Source: a virus (taxonomy: Duplodnaviria; Caudoviricetes). Taken from it: 64,000 bases of DNA. Positions 15,240-53,866 of the stretch are shown here, in pieces. The notes beneath the pieces were generated by a model. The model worked only from the letters and a program-made list of their open reading frames with translations, was not told the origin of the DNA and ran no database searches. Position 1 is the first letter of the stretch. Every line of letters begins with the position of its first letter. The stretch spans positions 1,333 through 65,332 of the IMG/VR virus record IMGVR_UViG_3300021368_000010. The stretch is one strand, 5' to 3'. A program made the translations under genes and the position numbers.

Positions 15240-15287
15240 AAAATTATAATTTGCCTATATACAATACACCCATACGAATGGAATAAA

Positions 15288-15776: not shown

Positions 15777-15788
15777 GCGAGGTTAGCG

Positions 15789-20684: not shown

Positions 20685-20971
20685 ACAATCAATTGCTTGG
20701 TGGGGGTAATGATGGTTCCAAACATATTAGAATACTGTTCAATAACGGCAGGTTGTGCATCAGTAATAAAGATCACTGCCAACTTCTCTACAGTAATACT
20801 ATTTACTGCAGGATCCTGAAGTGGTGCCCATGGTGCAAACCCAAGTTGATTTTCTGCAGCAGTAGGAATTGCAACAATAGGATTTCTGATGACAATGTTA
20901 TCAACATTATCTTCAACAATTTCTGCGATGACATTCTCACCGCTCATAAAACGAATGTACTTAATGCTCAT
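20681..20971 (-). CDS. Hypothetical protein (possible Sm-like fold)
   Basis: YIRFMSGENVIAEI...FAPWAPL. Confidence 0.75.
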   Translation of the reverse strand: MSIKYIRFMSGENVIAEIVEDNVDNIVIRNPIVAIPTAAENQLGFAPWAPLQDPAVNSITVEKLAVIFITDAQPAVIEQYSNMFGTIITPTKQLIV

Positions 20972-21360
20972 GATGATTTTCTAAGTTGATTTGAGGTTTT
21001 TGCTTTGTGGCAATCATAGCATAACAATTGACACTTGTTAATTTCATTCCAAAAGTTTTTACTCAATTTTTTTGAGCACATACTGCGTTTTGGATTCCAT
21101 TCCTTTTCTATAGGATTTATATGATCTAATTCAAGTCGTTCTTTACTACCACACTTAATACATCCTTCAGAACCATCTCTTTCTTCCAAGAATTTAATTA
21201 CCGTGGCAAAATTTTCAGTATATCTTTCTTTGAGGAGATGTTTATCTCTCTGATAATACTCTCGTTTTTTCTGCTTAACTTCTGGAAGTTGGTTGCGGGC
21301 ATTCTTCTTTGCCTTTGCTTCGGGAGAGAGTCTTTGATACTCTGCCTTATGATCCCTCAT
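20968..21360 (-). CDS. HNH endonuclease
   Basis: CxxC...LELDHINP...CQLLCYDCH. Confidence 0.85.
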   Translation of the reverse strand: MRDHKAEYQRLSPEAKAKKNARNQLPEVKQKKREYYQRDKHLLKERYTENFATVIKFLEERDGSEGCIKCGSKERLELDHINPIEKEWNPKRSMCSKKLSKNFWNEINKCQLLCYDCHKAKTSNQLRKSS

Positions 21361-34574: not shown

Positions 34575-34695
34575 AACGATACTTAAGTGCTTGTAAATGC
34601 CATGCTTGTGATAAACTCTTGGGTCCTTCCTTTAAAAGTTTTCTTTCTTCAGGAGTGATAACCCAATACTCTAAAATTTCTTGTTTCCAATTCAT
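34537..34695 (-). CDS. Small hypothetical protein (52 aa, MNWKQEILE...)
   Basis: Not in ORF track; ATGA overlap with the g3 stop; GPKSLSQAW motif. Confidence 0.6.
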   Translation of the reverse strand: MNWKQEILEYWVITPEERKLLKEGPKSLSQAWHLQALKYRYESRKPSRDVEN

Positions 34696-35240
34696 AAGCG
34701 TTCTGCCGAATTGACCTTTCTGAATTCGTAATACAAATATTTAAAAGTTACCTGGGCAGTAATAAATTCATTGTCCCCTCCAGTTACATCAAAAGGTAAT
34801 GTACTGAGACTGATTGGATACATGTCTCTGAATACTACATCAAAATTATTTAGATTATTGTTATTTAAAACTTGTAAGGTTGCTGCAGAAACCGATGGTC
34901 TACCTTCTCCAGGATATTCTGCTCTCCATTTAGCAGCATCTCTTTGACTAATACCACCACTGATTGCTCTCATCCAATTATGGATTTCCATATAGTTTTC
35001 TAGATTTTCATCTACAATAAATTCTACCGTAAAATCATCAAATCTAGCATTGCCCTCTACAGGTAATGGAACATGACCTCTATAATAAACTTCGGCAGTT
35101 CCAACATTAAAAGTAGGAATTGCTGCACGCTGACAAAGATACGAAACCTTTTTGGATTTCTCTAAGATCAAGACAAATCCAATCGGTGACAAATAATTGT
35201 TAGAACTTAATTGTCTTTCGTACCACTTACTTACAGCCAT
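34692..35240 (-). CDS. g3: Tail completion/sheath stabiliser gp3
   Basis: NYLSPIGF, FIVDENLENYMEIHNW, YPISLS; synteny. Confidence 0.9.
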   Translation of the reverse strand: MAVSKWYERQLSSNNYLSPIGFVLILEKSKKVSYLCQRAAIPTFNVGTAEVYYRGHVPLPVEGNARFDDFTVEFIVDENLENYMEIHNWMRAISGGISQRDAAKWRAEYPGEGRPSVSAATLQVLNNNNLNNFDVVFRDMYPISLSTLPFDVTGGDNEFITAQVTFKYLYYEFRKVNSAERL

Positions 35241-39481: not shown

Positions 39482-41086
39482 TTAGATTTCGCCTCGTTTG
39501 GCGTCACCGGCATCGGGTTGCGGTTGTGCTGATTGCGGTTGTCCTCCGCCTGCAGGTGCTCCCGCCCCAGCATCCATAGCAGGATCCATTGCTTCCGCTG
39601 GATCAAGAATAAGACCTGCATCCATTTCAGACTTAATTTGTTTGTCAATTTCTTTAATCTCAGTTTCGGTTTGCTTAAGAACCTGACGGCGCATATAATC
39701 AATAGAGAAATATTTGCCAACATAAGGATCCATTGCCGCAACTTGATTCATTCTTTCGTTACGGATTTCAATTTCTTTCAGTTCGGTGAAATAGTTATCA
39801 GCGATATAATCAAACTGAATATGCTCCTTCATTTCATCCCATTCTTCCAATGAGATAACTCCTTTCAGAATAAGTTGAGTCTTCAGAAGATCTGTAAACA
39901 ATTCGGAGAAACGCTTACGGAGACGAGCAACAAACTTCTGAAATTTAACTTCGTCGCGAGTAATCTCTGCTGCACGACCAATATTAAAAGTCGTCTCAGT
40001 TTCTAAACGAGAAGAAGGAACATTTAGTGCTTTGTACAGTTTCTTTTGGAAATACTTAACATCCTCTAGTTCGCCAAGATTCTGTCCACCGGGAAGTGTA
40101 GAGATTTCTGTACCTCTGCCGCCTTCACGACGAGGTAACCAGAAGTCTTCCAACATAGACATAAACTTTTTATCGTCCTTAATTTCACCAGTGTTCGCAT
40201 CATAAACCATCTTGTTACGATAACGACTCATAACTTCACGAAGGTATTGTTCCGCTTTATTCTTAGGGAGATTACCAACATCAATGTAAAAGATACGACG
40301 CTCAGGTGCTCTACTCAAACGGTAGATAACCAAAGAGTCCTCAATCATTCTCAATTGATTGACTGCTTTAATCGCCTTATGCAGGTGACTAAGCGTCATG
40401 TTTTTGTTTAGATCTTGAATGCCTGAATGGCAGTAACAAACAGAATCAGTAGTAATTTTCATACCCTGATTAGTAGAGTTCTTCAGACCTTTGGGATTAT
40501 AAAGAAAATACTCTGCTGCTTTTTGAGTTAATTGAGTATTCAAATCTACACCCTGCAATTCATTAGGGCGTCTTTGCTGGTACTCAGTTACTTTACGGAT
40601 CTTACGGGGATCAATATATCTAAGTTCTACTAGTCCTGCAGCAGGGTCTTTCGGATCGATAATCTTATGATAGAATAATCTTCCATCTACATACCAACGA
40701 CGAAAGATTTCATAAGAACGATTTTCAAAATCTAAAAGACGAAGAATCTCATGAAACTCGTCACGAATAAGTTTTTTAATTTTATCAGATTGCTTTAAGT
40801 TAGATAGTTCTACCTCAACAGGCACATCATCAAAATTGCCGCAAATTGTTTCGTTTACAATATCATCTACGGCACTATCGCATTCTGGTTGTAAAACCAT
40901 CTCTCTATAACGAGAGATTAATTCGTATTCATTACGAAGAGTTCCATCAAAATCAACAGAATAACCATAGTATCCGCCACCTACAATAGGTTGCGAACCA
41001 TCCATAGAATCTTTTTGAACAAAAGAAGGACCTTTAGGTCTCTTTTTTGCTCTCTCTAGTGAAAATCCAAATAGCTGTTGAGACAT
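39482..41086 (-). CDS. g20: Portal protein gp20
   Basis: YRLSRAPERRIFYIDVGNLPK, EDFWLPRREGGRGTEI. Confidence 0.98.
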   Translation of the reverse strand: MSQQLFGFSLERAKKRPKGPSFVQKDSMDGSQPIVGGGYYGYSVDFDGTLRNEYELISRYREMVLQPECDSAVDDIVNETICGNFDDVPVEVELSNLKQSDKIKKLIRDEFHEILRLLDFENRSYEIFRRWYVDGRLFYHKIIDPKDPAAGLVELRYIDPRKIRKVTEYQQRRPNELQGVDLNTQLTQKAAEYFLYNPKGLKNSTNQGMKITTDSVCYCHSGIQDLNKNMTLSHLHKAIKAVNQLRMIEDSLVIYRLSRAPERRIFYIDVGNLPKNKAEQYLREVMSRYRNKMVYDANTGEIKDDKKFMSMLEDFWLPRREGGRGTEISTLPGGQNLGELEDVKYFQKKLYKALNVPSSRLETETTFNIGRAAEITRDEVKFQKFVARLRKRFSELFTDLLKTQLILKGVISLEEWDEMKEHIQFDYIADNYFTELKEIEIRNERMNQVAAMDPYVGKYFSIDYMRRQVLKQTETEIKEIDKQIKSEMDAGLILDPAEAMDPAMDAGAGAPAGGGQPQSAQPQPDAGDAKRGEI

Positions 41087-41127
41087 TACATCAATTAATT
41101 TTTCCTATACTGTATTTATCGACTTTG

Positions 41128-41706
41128 TTAACTGGGGTTTGAACGCTTAGTTACTTCAAAATAAGTGTAGTCCCATTGAACCGATATTTCCATGATCTGA
41201 TCATTTGCTGCCATATCCAATTCTTGTCCCTGAATAGTAGTTGGGTAACAATGAAATAAAGTAATTTCATGTACTGATTTATTGCCCTGCTGATTCCGAT
41301 CTAATACTTTTATTTTAATGGGTCTGTTTTTATAAACTTGATCACCTGTGGAATTATCTCCATGATATCCAGTCTCTGCTGGTAGGTTATAATTAATCCA
41401 ATCATATAGTGCCATTTTAGTAGAGAATTCTTTATCTACATAAAAACTACAAGTCCACGGTTCAAATGCTCTTTCTCCCGGAACTTTCATAGCTCTTCCG
41501 GCATAATAATATTCCATAGTTGTCATTGTTACACCAGGAAGGTTTGTTGCCTTTGCGGCATATGTGACCCATTCTTGAAGATCTCCCGTTTCATGCATAG
41601 TGGCATCTGGAATATCAATTCTTAATTCAAAAAAGTTAGGTCTTGCAAATCCTTTATCTGAAAATTTTGATCTAAATTCATTTAAAGTAGTTGGTGCAGT
41701 TGCCAT
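41128..41706 (-). CDS. g19: Tail tube protein gp19 paralogue 3 (most diverged)
   Basis: FARPNFF, ATNLPG, GRAMKVPGERAFEPW, CYPTTI...LD. Confidence 0.8.
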   Translation of the reverse strand: MATAPTTLNEFRSKFSDKGFARPNFFELRIDIPDATMHETGDLQEWVTYAAKATNLPGVTMTTMEYYYAGRAMKVPGERAFEPWTCSFYVDKEFSTKMALYDWINYNLPAETGYHGDNSTGDQVYKNRPIKIKVLDRNQQGNKSVHEITLFHCYPTTIQGQELDMAANDQIMEISVQWDYTYFEVTKRSNPS

Positions 41707-41730
41707 TCGATTTACCTATAAATCTCGGTC

Positions 41731-41761
41731 AAAAAAATAAGGTCTCGTATGAGACCTTATT
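41731..41761 (-). terminator. Terminator-like hairpin between g19 paralogues 2 and 3
   Basis: AATAAGGTCTC-ATAC-GAGACCTTATT followed by TTTTT. Confidence 0.75.
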
Positions 41762-41791
41762 CAATTTAATTATATTTATGCTACTAAGGCA

Positions 41792-42418
41792 TCAATCTGG
41801 TGCTTGATCAGGATCAACATCCTTACTACTGCCCTTATTGGTTTTTGCTTGTTCTCTGTCCTTACCTTGAGTGACAAACTGAACTTGGAATTCAACTGTA
41901 AATTCTTGAACAGCGTCGTTATTACCCCAGTCAAGATCAACTGCAGATACTGAGGAAGGCCAAATATCATACAACTTATAAGATCTAAGAATCTGATATT
42001 CTTCTCCTTCCTTTACAACTCTATTCAGAAGACTGCAAACTGCATTTCCAAATAACTTCTCGTCTGATTTTGTCGAGAAGTTATACTCGTTTCCTTGAAT
42101 GAGAGAAACCCATTTTTCAAAAATATTTCTAGCAACTTGCTTTTGATCATTCATGAAAGTAACAGTCCATGGTTCATAGGTTCTGTCACCTGCAATTTTA
42201 AGAGTTCTTCCTCTAAAAGGAACCTCAACATTACCTTGAGTGTAAGAAGGAATCTGTGCAGCTCTAGCAAGATACTTAACAGTATTCTCTCTCTTTGTTT
42301 GACTTACTCCAATTTTAGGTGGAAATCCCATCTCGATCTCGAAGAGGTTATTTCTAGTGAATCCTCCCCAGTTTGTAGAGGCCATTGACCCCTTAAATTC
42401 GTCTAATGAAAATGCCAT
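41792..42418 (-). CDS. g19: Tail tube protein gp19 paralogue 2
   Basis: RNNLFE, RAAQIP, EVPFRGRTLKIAGDRTYEPW, WPSSVSAVDL, EFTVEFQ; TATAAATA at 42454-42461. Confidence 0.9.
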   Translation of the reverse strand: MAFSLDEFKGSMASTNWGGFTRNNLFEIEMGFPPKIGVSQTKRENTVKYLARAAQIPSYTQGNVEVPFRGRTLKIAGDRTYEPWTVTFMNDQKQVARNIFEKWVSLIQGNEYNFSTKSDEKLFGNAVCSLLNRVVKEGEEYQILRSYKLYDIWPSSVSAVDLDWGNNDAVQEFTVEFQVQFVTQGKDREQAKTNKGSSKDVDPDQAPD

Positions 42419-42484
42419 TTGTTTTTATCCCCGCGTTGGTATGCTTTAAAAATTATTTATAAAAAGGTGATTTTTCAGACCCTA

Positions 42485-43135
42485 TCAGTCCTCTCCAGCG
42501 CCGTTAGGAATGGTGACACCATCAACATTCTTACCGCCAGCGGTTCCAGCAGAACCTTCATCGATTGTCCAATATGCATATTGCATTTCTACAGTGAATT
42601 CTGTAATTGAATCATTAGCATTTGCATCAAGATCGATTGCGGAAATATTGGTGGGATATGCATGATGAAATTTATAGGTTTTAATTTTTTGCTTACCATT
42701 GTCATTGGTGTTGTTACCAAACTTAGACAAGAGGTGAACATACATCGGTTGATGATATTTAAATCCTTTGAAGTTGGATCTGTTCTTGGATGCGTTATTC
42801 ATCGCATTAATCCAGGACTCAAATGACTTGCGGATACCCTGCTTAGTATCGTTCATAACAGTGATAGTCCAGGGCTCATAAGTTCTATCTCCAGGAATCT
42901 TATATGTTCTTCCTTGGAAAGGAACTTCAATAACACCTACGGTTGACGCAGGCATTTGTGCTGCACGAATAAAGAACTTGGCATTCTTTTGCGTGTCCGC
43001 ACCCTTTTCGATGTTACCACCCTCGGTTAAGTCATTTGCCTTAGGAAAGGTAATCTCGCAAGTGAACAGGTTAGACCTTGCAAACTCCTTACCGGCAATG
43101 CCGCTCCTGAAGTCGTCGATCGTATGATTTGCCAT
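42485..43135 (-). CDS. g19: Tail tube protein gp19 paralogue 1
   Basis: ARSNLF, RAAQMPAS, EVPFQGR..KIPGDRTYEPW, YPTNISAIDL, EFTVEMQY; TATAAATA at 43180-43187. Confidence 0.92.
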   Translation of the reverse strand: MANHTIDDFRSGIAGKEFARSNLFTCEITFPKANDLTEGGNIEKGADTQKNAKFFIRAAQMPASTVGVIEVPFQGRTYKIPGDRTYEPWTITVMNDTKQGIRKSFESWINAMNNASKNRSNFKGFKYHQPMYVHLLSKFGNNTNDNGKQKIKTYKFHHAYPTNISAIDLDANANDSITEFTVEMQYAYWTIDEGSAGTAGGKNVDGVTIPNGAGED

Positions 43136-43192
43136 GGATAACTATCTCCTATCTAAAACGAGGTGTCTGTCTCTATGTTTATTTATACAAAT

Positions 43193-43223
43193 AAAAAATT
43201 TGGGGACCTTTCGGTCCCCAAAT
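43193..43223 (-). terminator. Terminator after g18
   Basis: ATTTGGGGACC-GAAA-GGTCCCCAAAT followed by TTTTT. Confidence 0.85.
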
Positions 43224-43245: not shown

Positions 43246-45513
43246 TCAGCTAACGACTTCGGAGAAGGAAACGCCGGAGCGTGTTGCAACGAAGGTTAGT
43301 GTGATGAAGTTAATTGTGCGTGTCGGCTTGACATAGATGTCAGCAGCAAACTCGTTACGATCAACAGCATCCGGAGGGTTGTTGGACTCATCGCACTTGA
43401 CGAGGAAGTCGGTAACGCCTCTTCTACCTTGAACATCAGTCATGTAAGGTTCAACAACATTCAAGAAGGATGCTCTTGTACCTGCATCGTTCTGTTCAAA
43501 CAGAATGTTCTTAGAAGCAGTCTCGATGAATGCCTCAATAGTGATGAACAGACGGCGAACATTGATACGATCAAATGCAGACTGGAATACCAGCGCAGTC
43601 TTATCACCATAAAGAACGGTTCCTTGACCAGGGAAGGTAACGATCGGGTTGATTCTGTTAGAATACAGAAGATCGCGCTGAGACTTGTTAGGTGTGAATG
43701 CCAGTTTGATGGTGTTCAGGAGAACGCCACGGTTGAAACCAGCGGGAGAGAACCAAGGCTCGAACTGAACTTCTGTTCTCAGTGTCAGACCTGCGGTGTC
43801 AGCGTTGCAGGGGATGTAACGATACTTATCGTTGTACTTATCATAGATGTACTTGTAAGAAGAGTCAATTACAAGATAAGAAGAAGATGTAACACCCTTC
43901 ATGAAATCAACGATGTTCTCGGCAATGGTCTGAGGATCGGTGTAACCGATGATGTCACCACGGCGAGGCGAGATGAATGCCATGCAATCCTTACGAAGTT
44001 CTACCAGGTTGGTGAGAATCGTAACCTTACCAAGAGCATCTGCAGCAGTGTTGCCCAGAGGACCTGCGGGAAGGAAGTTGATGGCAACAGACTCACGATC
44101 AGTAACGAGATCGTAGGAGGCGCTGAGATCAAGGTTGTCGATGTCATATACAGTACCACTTACGGTGTAAGTTGCACCACTTCCAAGGCGATAGTAGTAA
44201 ACAGAGTTGTTAGCAGTACCAATCGCAGTTGCTCCAGTAGGATATCCCATACCACCTGCAGCAGAACGAATCAGGTTGAACTGACGATCTTCTGCAGTCT
44301 TACCGAAGTCACCATCAGATGAAGTGCCAGTAGCAGCAAATACATCAGTCTCGTGCTCACCCCAATAGATGTAATTGGAACGCTGCTTAATTACTTCAGG
44401 ATAGTAGTTGTTTTCACCAACAGATGTCTTACCGTCAGATGCTTTGGAAACACCAACATAACGCTCAAGAAGAGTTCCAGGAGTTCCGGTGATTTTACCG
44501 TCAACATCGATAATGAGAATATTCAGTTCGTCATTGCGACCACCCTTGGTAGAAGCATAGAGAGATGTTCCAGGACGGGAAGCAACCTCGCCCCACTTAC
44601 CACCGGGGACATACTCACGCTCAGGATACTCATCTCTTACAGAGGTGATTGCCACACTTAAAGCAGTTCCGGAGGTGCTGTCATCGATGCTATCTGCTGC
44701 AGCAAATTCAATGCTGTCCTTATTAAGACCGATATAAACACGACGCTCAATGCCATTGATTTGAGCAGTGTTGGTTCCTTGAGTGATAACTTGGTCATCA
44801 GCAAGAATACCAGTAACACCACCAGAAGGCAACGCGATTTCCAGTTTCTTGTTAGCAGAATCCCAAGCGAGAACATTTACTGTTTCGTCAGAACCGCCAA
44901 TGGAAATAGTTGTGGTAGCACCAGGAGTAAAAGAACCAATCAGAGTGTCAACGGTTAATACAATGCTGTACTTAAATACTTTACCGCTAGCACCAGATGT
45001 TGCAGTGATTGCATGGTCAGCATCGAATTGATACTCATCGCCCGATCCAGGAGCGGGAAGAACAGCAATTTGATCAGGACCTGCGTCAGTTACGAAAACG
45101 CCGAGAGAATTTCCTTGAGTACCGGGAGTTCTTGCTGCCCACTTCCAAGAATTAACTGCTTCTTCAAAAGTTCCTTCGTAGTTAAGGAGGTTTTTGATCT
45201 TGGGTGCGGAACCGCCACCGACATCATCGACTGCGTTTGCCAGTCCAGAGTTGTCGCAACGAACAACCTTCATAATTCCACCATACTGGAGGAATTGAAC
45301 TACAGTAAACCAATACTCGTAGTTGTAATCGTTCGGGGGTCCAAAAATGGCTTCAAATTGTACTTCTGAATCGATGTCTACAATTTCTTCTACAGGACCT
45401 TGCTCAAAGGGACCTACAAAGAAACCGACATTAGTTGCTGGTAATCTTGCGCTAGTAGTCAGATCCTTTTCAATAATCTGAATACCAGGCGATAACATAC
45501 GGGCTGCGGGCAT
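43246..45513 (-). CDS. g18: Tail sheath protein gp18
   Basis: LSPGIQIIEKDL, WFSPAGFNRG, RINVRRLF, KPTRTINFI; TATAAATA at 45558-45565. Confidence 0.97.
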   Translation of the reverse strand: MPAARMLSPGIQIIEKDLTTSARLPATNVGFFVGPFEQGPVEEIVDIDSEVQFEAIFGPPNDYNYEYWFTVVQFLQYGGIMKVVRCDNSGLANAVDDVGGGSAPKIKNLLNYEGTFEEAVNSWKWAARTPGTQGNSLGVFVTDAGPDQIAVLPAPGSGDEYQFDADHAITATSGASGKVFKYSIVLTVDTLIGSFTPGATTTISIGGSDETVNVLAWDSANKKLEIALPSGGVTGILADDQVITQGTNTAQINGIERRVYIGLNKDSIEFAAADSIDDSTSGTALSVAITSVRDEYPEREYVPGGKWGEVASRPGTSLYASTKGGRNDELNILIIDVDGKITGTPGTLLERYVGVSKASDGKTSVGENNYYPEVIKQRSNYIYWGEHETDVFAATGTSSDGDFGKTAEDRQFNLIRSAAGGMGYPTGATAIGTANNSVYYYRLGSGATYTVSGTVYDIDNLDLSASYDLVTDRESVAINFLPAGPLGNTAADALGKVTILTNLVELRKDCMAFISPRRGDIIGYTDPQTIAENIVDFMKGVTSSSYLVIDSSYKYIYDKYNDKYRYIPCNADTAGLTLRTEVQFEPWFSPAGFNRGVLLNTIKLAFTPNKSQRDLLYSNRINPIVTFPGQGTVLYGDKTALVFQSAFDRINVRRLFITIEAFIETASKNILFEQNDAGTRASFLNVVEPYMTDVQGRRGVTDFLVKCDESNNPPDAVDRNEFAADIYVKPTRTINFITLTFVATRSGVSFSEVVS

Positions 45514-45576: not shown

Positions 45577-47226
45577 TTACCTAAACTCCCACATATAGGA
45601 CTTATCACCATATTCCGCGATCTCCCATCGTTCCCCCTGAGCATCAATTATATGGTCATCATCTAATCCGTCACTGATAAATCCAAACGGTGCCATGTCT
45701 TGTTCAATGGATTCTCTTTGATCTGCATAGATTCGAGCACGAACATCATTGTCATGCATCTCTTTAAAATAATCTTGCATTGCCATCCAGGCAAAAATAA
45801 CAAGACACATGGCAAGGTCATCATTACATCCATCTTCTGCCGCAAATGATTGACCTTTTACAATAAATGTAGTTAATTCTGCAATTGTGTCATAGTCATG
45901 CAATAACAATTTATCTTCTTCTAGGAGTGCTTTTAAATTAGAACACCCAACCTGCTTTACTGCGGTGGACATCTTAACACCCAGTTGAGTCTTCTTACCA
46001 GAGAATCCTTGACCAAGTTGTTGACCTGCCCTACCCCTCATTGCACACATTAAAAGATTTTCATACTCCAGATCGAACTGGATTATGTCGGCCACTTGCC
46101 CTCCAATGTCATTAACTTCGCACAACACATATGCATTATTATAATTCTTTGCAACATCAATGATGATATTAGGGAATATGATAGGTTTAATTTCGTTGTT
46201 TCTATATCTAGCAACGACTTTATATGGCACTGTTGTAGTGTCCATAACCATAAATGCAGAGTAGTCATTAGATAATCCTCTAGCAACATCGACAGTTATA
46301 ATATAGTTATGCTCCGGCACTGCTTTATCATATATTGCCAATCCATTCTTCTGCACCAAAGGATCATGATATGGCATAGTCCTCAATTTACTGGGACTAA
46401 TTAAGGTGTCAACAGAACCAAGGAATTCACACTCAAACTCAACTCGGAACTGCTGCTCAGATGTATTTTTAATCGTTTGTTCTTTCCATGCAGCATCTCT
46501 ACCAGGAACCTCTGACCAATGCACTTCCGTAGGGACATATTCATTAGACCCTCTTTCAGAATCATGCCAAAGTTTATAAAACATATTCATCCCGTGAGGG
46601 GTAGAGATAATGATAACCTTTGTTGATTTACCAGAAGAAATAGTAGGATAGACAGAACTAAAGAATTGATCAGCAACATGATTCGGAACGAACGCGAATT
46701 CGTCCAAGAAAATAACATTAAAAGACATACCCCGGACAGCAGAAGCCGAAGTAGATGCAGCAAGGATTTTACTTCCGTTTTCCAATTCCAAGGATCCTCT
46801 GTTCCACTGGAGGATTCCTTGCTGTAACCATTTGGGAAGATTTTCATAACTCAGTTGCAATCTTTGTAGCATTTCGCGAGCAGTTGCTGCTTTGTTTGCA
46901 AGAATTGCTACATTAACATTGTCATTAAAAAGAACATACCACAACAGATAGGAAGTCACAATCGTAGACTTACCTGACTGTCGGGGCAGTTTTGCAATAT
47001 TAAATCTATTATCATGGAACTTCTGCACCATCTCCTCTTGGAAATAATACATGTCAAAGGGTATTAAACCTTTGTCCAAAGAAACGATTTTAATATAATT
47101 GCGAATAAAATAAACAGGGTCCTCAGAACATCTAAGGACCTCTTGAACTTGCTCAGGAGTAAATTCCTGAGCAGTATTTGCTTTTTTTAAATTAGGATTA
47201 CCTAAGTATTGATCGTGATTACTCAT
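45577..47226 (-). CDS. g17: Terminase large subunit gp17
   Basis: PRQSGKST, FLDEFAF, ISTPHG, DVARG, NDDLAM. Confidence 0.97.
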   Translation of the reverse strand: MSNHDQYLGNPNLKKANTAQEFTPEQVQEVLRCSEDPVYFIRNYIKIVSLDKGLIPFDMYYFQEEMVQKFHDNRFNIAKLPRQSGKSTIVTSYLLWYVLFNDNVNVAILANKAATAREMLQRLQLSYENLPKWLQQGILQWNRGSLELENGSKILAASTSASAVRGMSFNVIFLDEFAFVPNHVADQFFSSVYPTISSGKSTKVIIISTPHGMNMFYKLWHDSERGSNEYVPTEVHWSEVPGRDAAWKEQTIKNTSEQQFRVEFECEFLGSVDTLISPSKLRTMPYHDPLVQKNGLAIYDKAVPEHNYIITVDVARGLSNDYSAFMVMDTTTVPYKVVARYRNNEIKPIIFPNIIIDVAKNYNNAYVLCEVNDIGGQVADIIQFDLEYENLLMCAMRGRAGQQLGQGFSGKKTQLGVKMSTAVKQVGCSNLKALLEEDKLLLHDYDTIAELTTFIVKGQSFAAEDGCNDDLAMCLVIFAWMAMQDYFKEMHDNDVRARIYADQRESIEQDMAPFGFISDGLDDDHIIDAQGERWEIAEYGDKSYMWEFR

Positions 47227-47546
47227 TCCACATGCACAGTACCAATCATGCCCGCACCTTTATGAGGGCCACACCAATATGTATAATCTCCAGCGTCGGT
47301 GAATGTCACATCAAACTCTTCGCCAGGAAGCATAGCAAGTGCCTCATGACTTAACTCTGGATGATCTTCCACAACAACATTGTGAGGAGGAAGCATGTTA
47401 TTAACGAAATGAACTGATTCTCCAGCAGCGATTGTAATTTCTGCAGGATCAAATACTAGGTTTCCATTGGATCCCATTTGAACATCTACTGCCCATACCG
47501 GAGCAGCAAAGAAAATTGATGCAATTAATGCGAATAAAAATTTCAT
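47223..47546 (-). CDS. petE: Plastocyanin
   Basis: Signal peptide; HN, YWCGPHKGAGM copper ligands. Confidence 0.96.
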   Translation of the reverse strand: MKFLFALIASIFFAAPVWAVDVQMGSNGNLVFDPAEITIAAGESVHFVNNMLPPHNVVVEDHPELSHEALAMLPGEEFDVTFTDAGDYTYWCGPHKGAGMIGTVHVE

Positions 47547-48001
47547 ACTAGTGTTCCTTTTTCTCTACGAATTTCTCTAAGTTCTTCAAAGTTTTTTTGT
47601 TTGGTGCCACCATCATATGCCCAGGCATATCCCTCTTCAATCATTTGTTCGTTGAGGGACACATCTCCGTCCCCAATGTATAACCAACCAAGAAGACGGC
47701 CATACTTGCCGACGCCACCAATAAGTTCAGTCCTAATAACAAGGTCATCATCACCAGAAATGGCACCTTCGAGTTTTTCTTTGAGCCAGTTTGTTGCTTC
47801 AATACCTAACTCCTTTTCTTCCAGGTCTCTGGTTCTCTTCTCGGTGGTATCCACTACAGCGACTCTCACCCTTTCTTTTTTATAGAGATCAAATCCTAGA
47901 TCGATAGTTACATCGATAGTGTCACCATCAAGAACTCTATTTATTTCGATCACTCGAAAGTTGTAACAACTCTTCCGACTCGGGGGTGTCATCGCTCCCA
48001 T
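47543..48001 (-). CDS. Thermonuclease (SNase)-family endonuclease
   Basis: VLDGDTIDV, KYGRLLG, NEQMIEEGYA. Confidence 0.8.
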   Translation of the reverse strand: MGAMTPPSRKSCYNFRVIEINRVLDGDTIDVTIDLGFDLYKKERVRVAVVDTTEKRTRDLEEKELGIEATNWLKEKLEGAISGDDDLVIRTELIGGVGKYGRLLGWLYIGDGDVSLNEQMIEEGYAWAYDGGTKQKNFEELREIRREKGTLV

Positions 48002-48140
48002 TTTCTTCTAACTCCTTGAATGCTAGGTTCATAATGGTATATATGTAATAACCAACACCTACCAAAAGGATAACGAGACACCAAATGATACTCCAAGTCA
48101 CACCAGTAGGATCTTCTATAGGGCGCAAAAATAAATTCAA
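47937..48140 (-). CDS. Small single-TM protein
   Basis: 67 aa, WSIIWCLVILLVGVGYYIY. Confidence 0.6.
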   Translation of the reverse strand: MNLFLRPIEDPTGVTWSIIWCLVILLVGVGYYIYTIMNLAFKELEENGSDDTPESEELLQLSSDRNK

Positions 48141-48279
48141 GGGTTGTGCGGATCTATACCAAGACTATCTAGGTAATCAATCCACCATTGAGGATCTTTT
48201 CGTTTCCATTTCGGGACATCCTTTCCTTGAAGCGAATAGTATTCGCTAATCGCTTCATCGATAGTCTGTGCGATCTCCA
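48137..48279 (-). CDS. Small hypothetical protein
   Basis: Probable TTG start (LEIAQTIDEAI) after GGAA-rich stretch; PQWWIDYL. Confidence 0.5.
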
Positions 48280-48464
48280 AATTCCTCTTCTTCTTCATCA
48301 ACATCCGCATACGGGTTCTCCAAATAGGGTCCTCGTTTTCGTAAAGGTTCTTTTCTGACATAATCCTGTTCAGCATTAACGGCTTCAATCCAAACAGCAA
48401 GTTTCATCACTAGAAAAATGATGATGAGAGGTGTAAAACACCCAACTAAAATTACGGGGTTCAT
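48255..48464 (-). CDS. Small single-TM protein
   Basis: 69 aa, hydrophobic N-terminus, acidic tail. Confidence 0.65.
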   Translation of the reverse strand: MNPVILVGCFTPLIIIFLVMKLAVWIEAVNAEQDYVRKEPLRKRGPYLENPYADVDEEEEEFGDRTDYR

Positions 48465-48619
48465 TTGTGACTCCTAGAGAAAGGTTCCCAGTGCTCCCAT
48501 CCATATTTATGGACAAAATGCATTCCTAAGATGGGAACAAACACAAGAAAAAACCCCATGACGCCAAGGCACCAAGGGGTCTGCATTGTGTGTCTTATAA
48601 ACAATTGAATGTGGTGCAT
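48461..48619 (-). CDS. 52-aa membrane microprotein (...HKYGWEHWEPF...)
   Basis: Not in ORF track; ATGA-coupled to the next gene; one TM helix. Confidence 0.65.
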   Translation of the reverse strand: MHHIQLFIRHTMQTPWCLGVMGFFLVFVPILGMHFVHKYGWEHWEPFSRSHK

Positions 48620-48621
48620 CT

Positions 48622-48705
48622 CTACTTTCTGTATCTAATTGGCCATGTTAGTTCCATAGCAGAAATAAGCAACAAAATAAAAGCAAATACAAACAATGTG
48701 CTCAT
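48622..48705 (-). CDS. 27-aa hydrophobic microprotein
   Basis: MSTLFVFAFILLLISAMELTWPIRYRK; ATGA overlap with the zwf stop. Confidence 0.55.
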   Translation of the reverse strand: MSTLFVFAFILLLISAMELTWPIRYRK

Positions 48706-50048
48706 GCTGGATAATCCCAATCGATTGCCATTTGATGGGTTTTATGTTGTGGTCCCCATGTATTTTCCATATAGATGTAAGGTACAGTTCTGATCTGACA
48801 TTGATCGCCTACACATAGTAGATCATCAACAATTCTCCATGATTCCATAACTTCCTCTGCATGAACGAAGTGTGATTGATCTCCATTGATTGCATCATAA
48901 AGAAGTTTTTCATAACCATCAACTGCTCTTTCCTGAGGATACTCATGGGTGAGAGTGGCAAGTTCAAGATCATTATTTAAACCGGGAGACTTAATGTCCA
49001 TCCGAATATCAAGATGGGGATTAGGTTGTACACGAATAACGATGCGATCATTAATCTCTCCTTCATACAATTTTAGCGGTGGAGCTTTGAGTTTAATGAC
49101 TACTTCTACACAACCATAAGGCATCTTCTTGCCTGTCATGACATTAAAAGGAACTCCCTCCCAACGCCAGTTATCGACGAATAAAGTACCAGCAAAATAG
49201 GTAGGAGTATTACTGTTAGGATCAACGCCCTCTTCATCTTTGTACCCATGGTATTGTCCGAGAATAATGGATGGTGACATTCTAGTGGCAGCTAAGACTT
49301 TTGTCTTCTCTCTTCTGACTTCTTTTGCTGACATTCGTGAAGGGGGTTCCATTGCAATTAAAGCAAGAACCTGGAGAACATGATTCTGTAGCATGTCTCG
49401 AACTGCTCCAGCAGTTTCATAATACTGAGCACGACCTTCGCATCCGATAGTTTCAGTTGCAAAGATCTGAACCTCTTCTATATATTCCCTGTTCCAAAGA
49501 GGTTCCAGTAGAATATTGCTAAAGCGGGTGGCAAGGATATTATTAACAGTATCTTTGCCGAGATAATGATCAATCCGATAAACCTGTTTTTCGCGTAGAT
49601 GTCTAGCAACCAAAGTTGATAGATGATCAGCAGATTTATAATCGTGCCCAAAGGGTTTTTCAATAACAACACGCGATGTTTCTGAGTCATCTAAACAACC
49701 TGCCTCCTTTAGATTAGTGATTGCATCTCCATATCTTTCTGGTGGAACCGAAAGAAAATAAGTCATATCATCAATGTATGCTGGGAGATTCCTAAGACTA
49801 TCTACATTCTCCAGATCAGCACATTGATAATCTAAATTCTGCAAGAAATCATCTGGATAGTCGCCAAGAGATTCTTTCCATTGATTTACTGTAGGTTCTC
49901 TCCTAGCACTACCTACAATTAAAAAATTATCTGGCAGAAGTTCTTTCTGCCAGAGTTTATAGAGTGCTGGGATCAATTTCTTTTTACAGAGATCTCCAGT
50001 TGCACCGAAGATCACAATACCTTTAGTGAGCGGTTCCATTTCCATCAT
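48702..50048 (-). CDS. zwf: Glucose-6-phosphate dehydrogenase
   Basis: IFGATGDL, EKPFG, RIDHYLGK, RDMLQNH; start at 50048/50045/50039. Confidence 0.97.
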   Translation of the reverse strand: MMEMEPLTKGIVIFGATGDLCKKKLIPALYKLWQKELLPDNFLIVGSARREPTVNQWKESLGDYPDDFLQNLDYQCADLENVDSLRNLPAYIDDMTYFLSVPPERYGDAITNLKEAGCLDDSETSRVVIEKPFGHDYKSADHLSTLVARHLREKQVYRIDHYLGKDTVNNILATRFSNILLEPLWNREYIEEVQIFATETIGCEGRAQYYETAGAVRDMLQNHVLQVLALIAMEPPSRMSAKEVRREKTKVLAATRMSPSIILGQYHGYKDEEGVDPNSNTPTYFAGTLFVDNWRWEGVPFNVMTGKKMPYGCVEVVIKLKAPPLKLYEGEINDRIVIRVQPNPHLDIRMDIKSPGLNNDLELATLTHEYPQERAVDGYEKLLYDAINGDQSHFVHAEEVMESWRIVDDLLCVGDQCQIRTVPYIYMENTWGPQHKTHQMAIDWDYPA

Positions 50049-50154
50049 ACTTGTCTGTTTCGTAATAGTTATTTTCACCTTTTCGTATCCCGAAATATAT
50101 CGTGGCCAATACAAATGGTACTGATATCCAGAGGAGTGCATTGCCTAAAGTCAT
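50023..50154 (-). CDS. ndhP: NDH-1 subunit NdhP-like microprotein (43 aa)
   Basis: MTLGNALLWISVPFVLATIYFGIRKGENNYYETDKYDGNGTAH: TM helix plus NdhP-type Y-x-T-D-x-Y-x-G-N-G-[ST]-A-H tail; ATGA-coupled. Confidence 0.85.
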   Translation of the reverse strand: MTLGNALLWISVPFVLATIYFGIRKGENNYYETDKYDGNGTAH

Positions 50155-50624
50155 TTGAAAAATACCTTAAATCCAAAAGATGTTCTGCCACCTTTAATAT
50201 TTCTAATACTAGTTATGTGTTCAGCATAAACTTTAAAGTCATCACCATATTCTACGCCTAATGATGCCAATGGTCCGTCAAACCTATCATTACTATCAAA
50301 ATCAGAATTGTTAATGCTGATCCCAGAGTAAAGAGTAGCGGCACCAGCTGGGGCGAGAAACTTGACACCTGCATGATTGACTCCCGGATGATCGTTGCAT
50401 TGCATTGGTGATGAAAGATGTTCAGCAAACAATCTTACATGTTTATGAATATCATATTCAATACCAAAAGAACCCATTGGTTCTTCAAATTTTAATTGAT
50501 CGTTGTTATCCCATGGATCTGCATTGATAGAAACATAGGTTCTAACTGATTCTGGTGTGATCCATCCAGCGACTGCGGTCACAGCGGTTGCCGCAACACT
50601 ATAATTACCAAGACAAATACTCAT
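50151..50624 (-). CDS. Hypothetical beta-rich protein with internal duplication
   Basis: GSFGIEY...RLFAEHLSS / ASLGVEY...KVYAEHITS. Confidence 0.65.
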   Translation of the reverse strand: MSICLGNYSVAATAVTAVAGWITPESVRTYVSINADPWDNNDQLKFEEPMGSFGIEYDIHKHVRLFAEHLSSPMQCNDHPGVNHAGVKFLAPAGAATLYSGISINNSDFDSNDRFDGPLASLGVEYGDDFKVYAEHITSIRNIKGGRTSFGFKVFFK

Positions 50625-51643
50625 CTTACGTCATGTCCTCCAAACATTGCTCGCATTCCGTTCAGAACCTTGGCAGCGAAAGCACCAAGACGGCGCGACT
50701 CAAAACGAGACCACAACGCACTGCTGATGACAGGAGCGGGTACACCAAGGTCCACAGCAGCGTGAACAGTCCAACGACCCTCACCAGAGTCTGATACTCC
50801 CCCATCGAACTTGCTAAGCTCTCTATCGCGGCGTAATACATCAGCGGTAAGATCAAGTAACCAACTGCCAACAACGCTACCGCGACGCCATAACTCAGCC
50901 ACCTCAGCAACATCAATGTCATATTGATAATCCCTTGGATTTTCCATCGGGGCAACTTCAGCATCACCTTCCTTGACATATTGAGAACCTGCATTTGCTT
51001 CATGTAGAATGTTAAAACCTTCGGCATATGCTTGCATGATTCCATACTCAATGCCGTTATGAACCATCTTTACAAAGTGACCTGCTCCAGGTGGTCCACA
51101 ATGTAACCAACCATACTCGGCACTTGTTTCATAACTGAGGGGGTCTGTACGAGAGGCAGATCCAATACCTGGTGAGAGTGCTCTAAAGATAGGAGCGCAG
51201 ACGGATACTGCAGTAGTTGTACCACCAACCATAAGACAGTATCCGCGCTCCAGACCATAAACACCACCACTAGTACCACAGTCAATATATTGGATGCCAA
51301 GTTTAGACAACCTTTCTGCCCTGCGTCTAGAGTCTTTAAAATTGGAATTGCCATGATCAATAATAATGTCACCTTCACTACAAAGTTGTAATAACTCATT
51401 GAGTGTCTCCTCTACTAATTCTGCAGGAATAACGAGTTGAAAGATGCCAGGATTGCCACCTTCCTTAACTACTTGAACAAGGCTTTCCAGATTAGTGGCA
51501 ACTCCACTGACATAACCCTTTTCAAACGCTTCTTCAGCTTTTGCATAATTCCTCCTGTAACCCCATACTTCAATGTTTTGTTTCATCATACGGCGGGACA
51601 TACCCTCGCCCATACGACCTAATCCGATTAATCCCACTTTCAT
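50621..51643 (-). CDS. gnd: 6-phosphogluconate dehydrogenase (short form)
   Basis: GLIGLGRMG, IDHGNS, GTSGG, GAGHFVKMVHNGIEYG, FGGH. Confidence 0.97.
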   Translation of the reverse strand: MKVGLIGLGRMGEGMSRRMMKQNIEVWGYRRNYAKAEEAFEKGYVSGVATNLESLVQVVKEGGNPGIFQLVIPAELVEETLNELLQLCSEGDIIIDHGNSNFKDSRRRAERLSKLGIQYIDCGTSGGVYGLERGYCLMVGGTTTAVSVCAPIFRALSPGIGSASRTDPLSYETSAEYGWLHCGPPGAGHFVKMVHNGIEYGIMQAYAEGFNILHEANAGSQYVKEGDAEVAPMENPRDYQYDIDVAEVAELWRRGSVVGSWLLDLTADVLRRDRELSKFDGGVSDSGEGRWTVHAAVDLGVPAPVISSALWSRFESRRLGAFAAKVLNGMRAMFGGHDVR

Positions 51644-51822
51644 TCCCAAGTCCTCCTAGCGATTGCCGATGCGGATCGGCGTTTTAATTCTGATGACAGA
51701 GATTCATACTCTCTGTACATACGATCTCCAACCGTGTACTTGCCCATTTTCTCTTCAACCGCTTCGATGATTAGTTTGTAATCTTCTTGGGTGAGAATGT
51801 TGTACTTAGTTTCTTTACTCAT
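51640..51822 (-). CDS. Small hypothetical protein
   Basis: 60 aa, tightly packed. Confidence 0.6.
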   Translation of the reverse strand: MSKETKYNILTQEDYKLIIEAVEEKMGKYTVGDRMYREYESLSSELKRRSASAIARRTWE

Positions 51823-52003
51823 TGTTTTTGAATAGTTGTTCTACTTGTTTACGAGCGTCCGACATTTTTTTATTTTCACGCTCGGCATGTTTGTAACCAT
51901 ATTTTCCATGGAATATAGCGTGACCTTGACAAAACATGGTCACACCAAAGATCAAGGCAAGAATAATGCCTATCCATTCAATTATAAGTGTATGTTCAGC
52001 CAT
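51815..52003 (-). CDS. Small single-TM protein
   Basis: 62 aa; TM then QGHAIFHGKYGYKH. Confidence 0.65.
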   Translation of the reverse strand: MAEHTLIIEWIGIILALIFGVTMFCQGHAIFHGKYGYKHAERENKKMSDARKQVEQLFKNNE

Positions 52004-52206
52004 GGGAATATCGGATCGATTACTCCAATGAGTCTAAGCAGACCCTCAGCAAAAAGTGCAAGAACAACCCAACCAACACACATACTGATAATTGAAGCAT
52101 TGCGATTGTGCTTTCGTATGGCAGCATCGATTAACTCCTGACACTCTTCATGTGTTATGTAGTTGGGTGGCGGATCTATCTTTTTGAATCTGTGTCCAAT
52201 TGCCAT
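51982..52206 (-). CDS. Small membrane protein of cyanobacterial type
   Basis: ECQELIDAAIRKHNRNASIIS then a TM helix. Confidence 0.7.
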   Translation of the reverse strand: MAIGHRFKKIDPPPNYITHEECQELIDAAIRKHNRNASIISMCVGWVVLALFAEGLLRLIGVIDPIFPWLNIHL

Positions 52207-52709
52207 TAAAAAATTACCTCCATTGCTTTTTCAAGTTCATGGACATGCTGTAGTTCATCATTTAAGATCTCTAGGATCTTATCGTCAGGACCATTCTCTG
52301 CAAGATACTTGGCATATGTTGTAGCGGCATGAACCTCTACTTCATAAGACAAATGGTATGCATTGCGAGGAGATACCCAATAATAAAATACATTGATCCA
52401 ATAATAGACAAGAACGAGGTGTTTGGCAACAAAGCGATCGATAAAATAAGCATTACCGCCCCGACTTTCCATATATTCCAGATGTGATGTTTCATTAATT
52501 GATTGCTCGAAGTGTTGAATCATGAGATCTATGTGCTCAGGACCACGAAGTCCCATGCTCTCTCTAAAATGTAACACGCTCAAAAACGCAAAATAGGGTG
52601 CCCGAGCAATCTCCTCAAGCACCCAAAATCTTTGATAGTCCCGACCATTATATAAGAAGTCGAGTATGGCAATGGTCCAATTAAGTACCAGGCAATTTAC
52701 GCTCTCCAT
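52206..52709 (-). CDS. ptoX: Plastoquinol terminal oxidase (PTOX)
   Basis: RFWVLEEIARAPYFAF, NETSH, EVHA, DELQH di-iron motifs. Confidence 0.93.
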   Translation of the reverse strand: MESVNCLVLNWTIAILDFLYNGRDYQRFWVLEEIARAPYFAFLSVLHFRESMGLRGPEHIDLMIQHFEQSINETSHLEYMESRGGNAYFIDRFVAKHLVLVYYWINVFYYWVSPRNAYHLSYEVEVHAATTYAKYLAENGPDDKILEILNDELQHVHELEKAMEVIF

Positions 52710-52956
52710 CTTGAGGAAATTCTTTGTCTAACCTATCTAGGCGATCAGCCCATGTTACACCCCCTTCAGTTCCTTTACAGGGGTTAATACAGTCAGCATC
52801 TCCTAACTTATTGCAAACCAAACCTGCCAAATCTAGTTCGCTTCCTTTGTTGCCAGTACCAGACCAGATATGTTGTCCGTTGATCCAGACTGCCCCACAT
52901 CTTTTACACTCTTTTCTCTCAAGTGCTAAGTCTGAAAATTCTCTACCGCTTTCCAT
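52681..52956 (-). CDS. Small Cys-rich hypothetical protein
   Basis: CKRCGAVWINGQH...LAGLVC...CINPC. Confidence 0.7.
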   Translation of the reverse strand: MESGREFSDLALERKECKRCGAVWINGQHIWSGTGNKGSELDLAGLVCNKLGDADCINPCKGTEGGVTWADRLDRLDKEFPQDGERKLPGT

Positions 52957-53158
52957 AGGTCTGATAGTGCTCCGTAAAGGTAGTTGGTTTAATTCCGAGT
53001 TGCTTTTCCAATTTTCTTCTCAGGAAGTAAGATCGGATAATAACCCAGTGCCAACGGATATCAATCTCAATGAACTGGATAAAACGCATCAAATCATTCA
53101 TTCCAAGATATGCTATGAAACAGATGATGATGGTAGCAGTCAAATAAAATGAGACCAT
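52943..53158 (-). CDS. Small membrane protein
   Basis: Start MVSFYL downstream of a sigma70 promoter. Confidence 0.6.
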   Translation of the reverse strand: MVSFYLTATIIICFIAYLGMNDLMRFIQFIEIDIRWHWVIIRSYFLRRKLEKQLGIKPTTFTEHYQTYGKR

Positions 53159-53181
53159 ACGAGTATCACGCTGATACAAAG

Positions 53182-53237
53182 ATTATAGGACTATTTACCA
53201 GATTTGTCAGTTACAAGTTATTACAATGTGTAATAAC
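53182..53237 (-). promoter_or_regulatory. Sigma70-type promoter (CTGACA-17-TATAAT) with adjacent HLR1-like direct repeat and palindrome
   Basis: attata 53182-53187, tgtcag 53205-53210, GTTACAAG-tt-ATTACAAT 53210-53227. Confidence 0.65.
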
Positions 53238-53238
53238 C

Positions 53239-53697
53239 TTAACAATTCCATGCTCGTAAACTTTTATTGATCCTGCTATCAGGATCTCTAGAAGTCTTAC
53301 TAGATGTACGCTTTGCTTTCATACCCTTCATTCTAGCGCAGAAGGATGCCCTTCTGGGATTTCCAACTTTCTTGCTTGGTGCTTTAAGGTCAGATCCAGG
53401 ATTTTCTCTTTCGTAAGACTTCCGTCCCTTTTCGTTGAGTCCTCCTTCTTTATTTTTTCCTGCCTTTCTTGTCCAGGCTGCTGCTTTTTCGTCAATATAA
53501 TAACCCTTTTCAGTTAAAACTCTAATCATTGCACGACCAATCGTCTCGTCAATGATACCCGAATGCTTTGCAGCATCTTTCATTTCCTTTTTAGAAGCAT
53601 CCTTTACAGTATACTTCTCCCACATAGACGGTCCATAACCGCATTGCTTTTTGGTTTCTCTCTTTTTGCACAACCGGCAATATCTTTCTTCAGACAT
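53239..53697 (-). CDS. Basic hypothetical protein (DUF6321-like), probable virion protein
   Basis: AAWTRKAGKN..GGLN.KGR...RRASFCARM...SLRAWNC. Confidence 0.75.
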   Translation of the reverse strand: MSEERYCRLCKKRETKKQCGYGPSMWEKYTVKDASKKEMKDAAKHSGIIDETIGRAMIRVLTEKGYYIDEKAAAWTRKAGKNKEGGLNEKGRKSYERENPGSDLKAPSKKVGNPRRASFCARMKGMKAKRTSSKTSRDPDSRINKSLRAWNC

Positions 53698-53866
53698 TTT
53701 TTTCTATGGATTGTCTTATACTATTTAACACTTTTTTGCAATCCCTCGAAGTTGATTGTAGTTGACTAATACCTCGTTTAACCTTCCTTCTAAGGACTGA
53801 AGGATGCTCTGGAACAGGGAGTTCTTCGGGATTGATTCTTGAAAAGATGTTATCAAAGTCTTTCAT
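53690..53866 (-). CDS. Small hypothetical protein (58 aa)
   Basis: Not in ORF track; fills the gap with overlaps at both ends. Confidence 0.4.
   Translation of the reverse strand: MKDFDNIFSRINPEELPVPEHPSVLRRKVKRGISQLQSTSRDCKKVLNSIRQSIEKNV

Follow-up and report, generated by a model that had tools for sequence, protein, structure and literature searches.

The tail tube of T4-type phages is regarded as a homopolymer of one conserved core protein, gp19, and its gene, g19, is a conserved core gene of T4-like phages. T4 itself employs four proteins with the tube fold (gp19 as the tube, gp54 and gp48 as baseplate tube initiators and gp3 as the terminator), so that several paralogues meet in one tube and the general theme of multiple tube paralogues is known; the minor T4 paralogues, whose genes are dispersed over the baseplate and neck modules, differ greatly from gp19 and exceed it in size (176-321 residues in the matched chains). 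The tube fold is also found in contractile injection systems (Afp1/Afp5/Afp7 and Pvc1/Pvc5/Pvc7) and in Hcp of type VI secretion systems, for which there can be several genes, and in such systems one tube paralogue can make up the bulk of the tube and others form single initiating rings. Cultured cyanomyoviruses, among them Syn19, S-SM1, P-RSM4/S-TIM4 and S-H25, carry one g19, placed between the sheath gene g18 and the portal gene g20 and preceded by a terminator and an NTAAATA box. Here we describe a locus in which this gene is present as three tandem copies. It lies in a 64,000-nucleotide stretch of viral DNA (the window; Duplodnaviria, Caudoviricetes), positions 1,333 to 65,332 of the IMG/VR record IMGVR_UViG_3300021368_000010, and thus nearly the whole of a 65,332-base viral metagenome record that is estimated to be 35% complete.

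The three copies, numbered 1 to 3 from g18 to g20 and referred to collectively as the trio, share family, fold, g18-g20 placement and the upstream terminator and NTAAATA box with g19 of the cultured cyanomyoviruses, to which copy 2 is 46-49% identical; the difference is one gene there versus three here. Unlike the minor T4 paralogues, the trio copies have the size of gp19, score above the gp19 Pfam threshold and stand in tandem at the g19 locus itself, besides a separate gp3 gene. As far as sequence comparison can tell, the novelty lies in finding the core gene g19 threefold at its own locus in T4-like cyanomyoviruses, in two uncultured sublineages, and new as well are a regulatory layout shared by these arrays and a marked acceleration of the whole tube set.

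The original prediction had called three intact g19 open reading frames (ORFs) between g18 and g20, and all three are present exactly where it had placed them (Table 1). Each product exceeds the PF06841 gathering score of 28.2 bits, and a PF06841 scan of the full record returns exactly these three matches. Copies 1, 2 and 3 match phrog_45 (“tail tube”) with E values of 6e-59, 7e-55 and 9e-45, and their best PDB sequence match is T4 gp19 (E = 1.4e-15, 3.7e-17 and 3.8e-8, respectively); copy 3 additionally gives weak PDB matches to T4 gp3 (E = 0.011), gp54 (E = 0.21) and a KP1 baseplate subunit (E = 0.0096). AlphaFold2 models of copy 1 (predicted local distance difference test score, pLDDT, 81.2) and copy 3 (pLDDT 85.3) find their best fold matches in the tail tubes of Klebsiella phage KP1 and T4 (E from 1e-12 to 4e-14; TM-score to target 0.81-0.86), and both also match T4 chains from the tube, the baseplate-tube and the portal-neck-tail assemblies (5w5f, 5iv5, 9mkb). 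Further fold matches of these two models include AFP, PVC, AlgoCIS, Anabaena CIS (contractile injection system) and Hcp chains, all of which are non-phage, are far less similar (TM-score to query 0.4-0.57) and stand in a different gene context.

Within this common fold the copies are strongly diverged from one another, with identities of 39% between copies 1 and 2, 31% between copies 1 and 3 and 23% between copies 2 and 3, and no DNA-level repeat between them was found at the array. Two of the motifs that had been reported for all three proteins, R-x-N-x-F and GR..K..G[DE]R.[YF]EPW, are indeed in each of them; the third is more precisely P-x6-[DE]-L-D. Copy 2 carries the canonical g19 motif VEVPFRGR.LKIAGDRT. 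The central beta-hairpins and the P-x6-DLD/ND loop are the best conserved parts, while two loops are nearly free to vary, and overall conservation decreases from copy 2 to copy 1 to copy 3, the last with only three representatives at E<=1e-30 among 1.84 billion. Single-copy g19 proteins are uniformly acidic (isoelectric point 4.5-5.4 in 12/12), and the trio copies range from 4.6 to 9.3; by net charge copy 3 is basic in 9/10 trios and acidic in the window, and no consistent complementary charge pattern was found among the copies. Copies 1 and 2 of the window and of three related contigs (L101, L102 and L004; type I, below) end in disordered acidic/Gly-rich tails of ~20-35 residues, which in the window are encoded at 42485-42560 and 41792-41870 and are absent from type II copies and from copy 3; in the model of copy 1 this tail has a pLDDT below 60.

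Two other identities were considered for the extra copies. Relocation of the ordinary terminator gp3 is ruled out by the separate gp3 gene in the window; gp3-type genes, that of the window included, form a clade of their own (support 100/100) apart from all g19 copies, and the gp3 match of copy 3 is far weaker than its match to gp19. Nor, in sequence, size or location, do the copies answer to a gp54/gp48-type initiator, as copy 3 alone matches weakly and all of them are gp19-sized and located at the g19 locus; in function some may nevertheless be equivalent.

One g19 is the norm in the relatives of this virus, as had been assumed, with 56 portal-related loci in which a single g19 is directly flanked by the g18 and g20 ORFs. 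A set of 80 viral contigs was fetched by portal similarity (84-93% identity), and 76 of them contain a g19 match: in one place in 71 contigs, in three tandem copies in three (L011, L022 and L027) and in two places in the remaining two, of which L004 is cut by the contig end and L082 owes its second match to a distant gp3-type gene. One of the 71, L032, begins inside a copy-3-type gene. Copy 3 alone, used as query, found no close relatives in viral contigs; an alignment of copy-3-type proteins as query brought out a further trio (L086) in the viral contigs, and in metagenome contigs it returned three copies in L101, L102, L104, L105, L107, L108 and L109 (L109 and L011 are one contig), as well as the truncated L106. 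Complete trios in the same order are thus found in 10 other contigs (L011, L022, L027, L086, L101, L102, L104, L105, L107 and L108), drawn from two collections and alike in order and spacers. They represent ~7 distinct sequence types, as L104 is nearly identical to L027, and L107 and L108 match L086. Every copy is an intact ORF in every trio contig, three more (L004, L032 and L106) break off within the array, and none of the contigs found carries exactly two complete copies. The copy-number survey that the original prediction had proposed therefore returns a single copy as the usual state and a trio in the window and these 10 contigs.

Cultured phages give a uniform picture. Five tblastn queries against 50,697 phage records report one place at the g19 locus in all 170 rows listed, and the best identities to a cultured phage g19 among these matches are 46%, 49% and 31% for copies 1, 2 and 3. 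Four of the 170 rows, from the two phages S-SRM01 and S-H25, report a second place in the record; these are not tandem copies, as each of the two phages (one record each) has a single annotated tail-tube gene between sheath or terminase and portal, and the second place is probably the gp3-type gene. With the whole trio of L022 as a DNA query, matches to cultured phages were confined to part of the middle copy, and the trio was not found in any cultured cyanophage record examined. Nor did searches of the main text of openly accessible papers find a description of multiple g19 genes in cyanomyoviruses. It had been named as a refutation that several g19 copies might prove a common and already understood state of this locus; this holds as to recurrence in uncultured relatives and fails as to cultured records and published accounts. 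On the present contigs, the trio appears to be a feature of two uncultured marine sublineages of T4-like cyanomyoviruses.

These two sublineages emerge from a maximum-likelihood tree of 48 tube proteins rooted on gp3-type proteins. Type I comprises the window, L101, L102 and L004, and type II comprises L011, L022, L027, L086, L104 and L105; each type forms a supported clade at each array position, and the trees of the three copies are congruent within type II. Copy 2 of both types falls into one clade (82/80), which joins canonical single-copy g19 (93/92), copy 3 forms one side of a branch (76/27), and copy 1 groups with the first copies of other trios at 84/79 in a separate tree. Constraining copy 1 together places the tree 0.37 log-likelihood units (lnL) above the free tree (approximately unbiased test, p-AU 0.58), and placing all type I copies in one clade, as expected of an independent triplication, is 14.9 lnL worse (p-AU 0.073). 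On the 48-protein tree, no more than the minimum of 4 changes is needed to distribute the labels copy 1, copy 2, copy 3, canonical and gp3. Because of this minimum and of the constrained-tree results, positional orthology after a single old triplication is favoured, with copy 2 as the likely counterpart of ordinary g19 and copies 1 and 3 as older, more derived paralogues. The major capsid protein (g23 product) tells a compatible story: trio contigs are 96.5%, 95.3% and 94.6% identical to the window and single-copy contigs at most 92.2%, so that trio contigs are the nearest, which fits vertical inheritance within one sublineage. L024 is closer still by this protein (98.3%), but this contig is cut at the portal gene.

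The tube genes of the trio lineage diverge much faster than their single-copy counterparts. At a portal identity of ~89-90%, single-copy g19 pairs are 83% identical (median, 231 pairs), versus 55% for copy 2 compared with single-copy g19 (88 pairs), and the copy 2 of the window is 45-48% identical to copy 2 of type II. Between the window and L102, both type I, the sheath is 80% identical and copies 1, 2 and 3 are 61%, 60% and ~39% identical. Ordinary phages show the opposite order, with g19 better conserved than g18 (0.83 vs 0.74). The terminator shows the same tendency. In a comparison of gp3 with g23 over the window, L022, L024, L028, L067 and L082, the gp3 of the window is 51% identical to that of L022, though g23 is 95% identical, and 75% identical to that of L024 with g23 at 98%; for the three single-copy loci the identities are 81-84% (gp3) and 85-96% (g23). 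gp3 seems, on these identities, to co-evolve with the tube copies.

The long-range ratio of nonsynonymous to synonymous substitution rates (dN/dS), a check called for by the original prediction, comes to 0.16-0.47 in the comparisons that allowed an estimate of dS, and since dS approaches saturation the true ratios are lower. By this measure all three copies are under long-range purifying selection, and their ORFs are intact. The closest pair, L011 and L022, gives 0.47, 1.26 and 1.12 for copies 1, 2 and 3 from differences that are few and patchy, and patches of this kind are also present in the portal gene. By GC content at third codon positions (GC3) and codon usage, copy 1 of the window resembles g18 and g22 and copy 3 resembles gp3; GC3 of g18, g19 and g20 is alike in 56 ordinary loci, and the pattern seen in the window is not uniform across trios. 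The fast divergence would fit, though it does not demonstrate, pressure from envelope passage or from tail-sensing defences. In an evolution experiment, populations of cyanophage S-TIM4 are reported to have gained mutations in tail-tube components on a Synechococcus host (PMC6224464), and together with the fast divergence this makes host pressure on the tube a live idea.

A common regulatory layout accompanies the trio. A promoter-like box upstream of each copy had been claimed, and each copy has one, TATAAATA for copies 1 and 2 and cATAAATA for copy 3. We take TATAAATA to be the T4-type late-promoter consensus; it occurs six times in the window, always on the minus strand, where 3.2 copies are expected and 11/100 shuffles reach six, which is not significant. 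In the trio loci in which the region upstream of copy 1 is readable, a GC hairpin with a T-run comes after the g18 stop, and a perfect TATAAATA then precedes copy 1. The spacer between copies 1 and 2 is short, and it holds TATAAATA in type I and none in type II. In L102 this spacer (3218-3296) contains a full unit of hairpin and TATAAATA, as found upstream of ordinary g19, and the window and L101 retain the box alone; the unit in L102 looks like a remnant of a duplicated upstream region. After copy 2, an NTAAATA box, a GC hairpin with a T-run and copy 3 follow one another in 11/11 trio loci, with no recognisable ribosome-binding site before copy 3 in most of them, and copy 3 is followed by NTAAATAAAGTATA and then g20. 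Single-copy loci have a box but no hairpin between g19 and g20 in 7/7 read. The hairpin upstream of copy 3 in the window was reported on the plus strand by the terminator scan because its stem is palindromic. From their consensus and their placement, these boxes and hairpins are presumed to act as late promoters and terminators. No direct or inverted repeats marking a recent duplication or an invertible switch were found around the array.

Copies that are kept together and intact, with position-specific conservation, in one late context and co-varying with gp3, are most simply accounted for as parts of one tube. Our preferred reading, to which we assign a probability of about 0.4, is that all three are subunits of one tube in which copies 1 and 2 supply the bulk and copy 3 a low-dose specialised ring. 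An old triplication of a T4-type g19 would have been handed down as a block within a sublineage of marine T4-like cyanomyoviruses that are so far uncultured, and all three copies would be expressed late in infection and co-assemble into a heterotypic tube. The strong TATAAATA behind the g18 terminator would drive copies 1 and 2, which would make up most of the tube, either mixed within rings or sorted into different rings that stack on one another. The conserved hairpin and T-run ahead of it, and the absence of a ribosome-binding site in most loci, would keep copy 3 at low dose, and it would form one or a few specialised rings at a tube end. Shared work would have relaxed or shifted the constraints on each protein, with the result that all copies and gp3 diverge far faster than the head genes. 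The sequences themselves show the genes, their family and predicted fold, their retention as a trio, the common layout and the difference in rates; the expression levels, presence in virions, co-assembly and tube position of the three copies are what we infer. A heteromeric or segmented tube had been proposed before, and its central element, more than one g19 protein in the tube, is indirectly supported by the inheritance of the trio, the intact ORFs, dN/dS below 0.5, the layout and the rate of gp3. A more specific version, possible but held with considerable reserve, has a bulk tube of two or three g19 proteins (as mixed hexamers or an ordered ring stack) locked by co-evolution among the three copies and gp3, with host pressure driving the several-fold faster divergence.

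Several points count against a tube built from all three copies. The trio lineage is known from the genes of uncultured contigs alone, and all trio contigs are partial. A search of sequencing runs for this stretch turned up no RNA run, its single hit sharing 0.06 of the words. In type II trios a strong Shine-Dalgarno-like sequence stands before copy 2 and not before copy 1; it is just as possible that the box ahead of the hairpin gives copy 3 a separate transcript, stabilised by the hairpin at its 5' end; and the dose argument is built throughout from consensus-type signals, with the GC3 and codon usage of the window adding a weak hint of an abundant copy 1. Independent triplication is not formally rejected at the p-AU given above, the groups were named after sight of a first tree, and for copies 1 and 3 positional orthology from a single old triplication is favoured rather than firmly set. 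The dN/dS values near 1 for copies 2 and 3 in the closest contig pair, few and patchy as the differences are, belong on the same side.

A close rival, somewhat less likely in our judgement, is that copy 2 alone builds a tube of ~20 rings while copies 1 and 3 are single hexameric end rings in the manner of gp54, gp48 and gp3, and several observations make this division of labour attractive. Copy 2 is the canonical g19 counterpart with its motifs kept and, in type II trios, has the strongest ribosome-binding site before it; T4-type tails already employ several tube-fold proteins as single rings; and the fold matches of the copy 1 and copy 3 models include tube-fold chains from the T4 baseplate and neck, with copy 3 weakly matching gp3 and gp54 in sequence. 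Four complete single-copy cyanomyovirus genomes, moreover, carry three tube-fold genes each, and copies 1 and 3 might replace the tube-fold gene that ordinary cyanomyoviruses have in their baseplate module. This scheme is at odds with the place of copy 1, which stands where g19 ordinarily does, immediately after the g18 terminator and a perfect TATAAATA, and in type II would be co-transcribed ahead of copy 2, an odd arrangement for a six-copy protein; copy 2, for its part, has lost much of the conservation of a homomeric subunit (55% vs 83%), and a separate gp3 is present, so that a terminator is not missing. The third tube-fold gene of the single-copy genomes (G001, G002, G003 and G005) lies near the genome start, far from g19, in an open frame of 263-296 residues, and is probably the baseplate tube initiator; in G001 (G001:C1:5731-6324; locus L179 436-1230) it is a 264-residue phrog_45 ORF with no PDB sequence match.

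Other bacteria possess defence systems that are triggered by tail-tube proteins, and the copies could be interchangeable versions for different virions or hosts, or decoys against such tube-triggered defence, under host-driven diversifying selection. The unusually fast divergence of all copies, copy 2 included, and the S-TIM4 mutations mentioned above would fit this idea, which we nevertheless consider improbable: no inverted repeats or other switch were found around the array, the position-specific sequences are conserved across two sublineages and are never reduced to two copies, which is unexpected if the copies are interchangeable, and all copies stand in one late transcription context, so that the three should be made together. 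The alternative virion types from one genome that the original prediction had entertained find no support here, as neither an invertible segment or switch around the array nor a contig with only two complete copies was found. Very improbable, finally, is that the extra copies are functionless, either as decaying duplicates or as a product of assembling mixed strains. In favour of this stand the metagenomic origin of the window contig and the near-1 ratios in the closest contig pair, which could be taken as decay, but the array recurs in 10 other contigs from two collections with like order and spacers, all ORFs are intact in all contigs, and the long-range dN/dS is as low as given above. Recurrence with intact copies rules out an assembly artefact and argues against decay, and with 23-39% identity between the copies collapsed strain variants are impossible.

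The comparison shows, in a widespread uncultured lineage, tube proteins and gp3 that diverge several-fold faster than capsid and portal, and tube evolution at this pace suggests that hosts may exert selection on a virion component usually considered shielded from it. If the three copies of the trio do co-assemble, they would be an example of a homomeric helical machine turned heteromeric, and a natural system for asking which contacts (ring-ring, tube-sheath or tube-terminator) constrain tube evolution. In cyanomyovirus metagenomes, annotation and copy counts based on g19 or on gene order will mislabel the trio genes.

Table 1. Features of the g19 array and its surroundings in the window (positions in the window; boxes and hairpins are putative signals)
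Feature	Position	Strand	Details
g18, tail sheath, upstream neighbour	43246..45513	-	755 aa; Pfam Phage_sheath_1C 59.1 bits, Phage_sheath_1 37.4 bits
GC-rich hairpin and T-run (terminator-like), after g18	43198..43223	-	Terminator scan; 11 pairs, 6 GC
TATAAATA box upstream of copy 1	43180..43187	-	Exact match; promoter function presumed
g19 copy 1	42485..43135	-	216 aa; derived paralogue (probable); PF06841 40.2 bits; disordered acidic/Gly-rich C-terminal tail
TATAAATA box upstream of copy 2	42454..42461	-	Exact match; in type I trios window, L101, L102
g19 copy 2	41792..42418	-	208 aa; probable counterpart of ordinary single-copy g19; PF06841 36.3 bits
ATAAATA box between copies 2 and 3, upstream of hairpin	41773..41779	-	Sequence reading
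GC hairpin (41736-41761) and T-run, directly upstream of copy 3	41731..41761	-	Terminator scan; inverted repeat I1
g19 copy 3	41128..41706	-	192 aa; most diverged paralogue; PF06841 35.6 bits
ATAAATA box upstream of g20	41113..41119	-	Sequence reading; NTAAATAAAGTATA context common to other trio loci
g20, portal, downstream neighbour	39482..41086	-	534 aa; Pfam Portal_T4 621 bits; 84-93% identity to portals of 80 related loci
gp3-type tube terminator	34692..35240	-	182 aa; phrog_45 E 3.6e-49; fourth tube-fold gene of the window

The surroundings of the array are those of a T4-like late module, with the order g17, g18, copies 1 to 3, g20, a DUF7216 gene, g21, g22 and g23, which places the three copies between sheath and portal. 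T4 core genes in the window comprise g13-g17, g18, the three g19 copies, g20, g21, g22, g23 and gp3. Downstream of g23 come a 2OG-Fe(II) oxygenase gene, the gp3-type gene, uvsY, uvsW, gp55 and gp47/46, and further downstream are gp45/44/62-like genes, regA, gp43, uvsX and gp41. Auxiliary genes include petE, PTOX, two dehydrogenase genes, one of which matches 6-phosphogluconate dehydrogenase, a phosphate-transporter subunit, Hsp20, mazG, speD and a cobS-like gene. The T4 core gene order and the cyanophage auxiliary metabolic genes identify a T4-like cyanomyovirus with a Kyanoviridae-type genome, and the nearest cultured matches of the window are Synechococcus and Prochlorococcus phages.

Some of the remaining genes deserve brief mention. 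An auxiliary-gene block between g16 and g17 (47223-53700, minus strand) encodes plastocyanin, an endonuclease, the two dehydrogenases (phrog_4941 and phrog_1319, the latter being the 6-phosphogluconate dehydrogenase match) and PTOX, with a 157-residue ORF (50151-50624) between the two dehydrogenase genes that has no PHROG or Pfam match. Upstream of g13, a structural protein of 2,010 residues (57870-63902, minus strand) is internally repetitive, as it matches phrog_697 in nine stretches. The ~1.7 kb from 15180 to 16870 contain no minus-strand ORF of at least 60 residues, though the genome is elsewhere densely packed on that strand; neither of the plus-strand ORFs there (15288-15776 and 16055-17095) has a Pfam match, and the window as a whole yielded no tRNA. 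Between the clamp-loader and DNA methyltransferase genes, an HNH endonuclease-like gene (20968-21360, minus strand; phrog_10212, phrog_4234) may encode a homing endonuclease.

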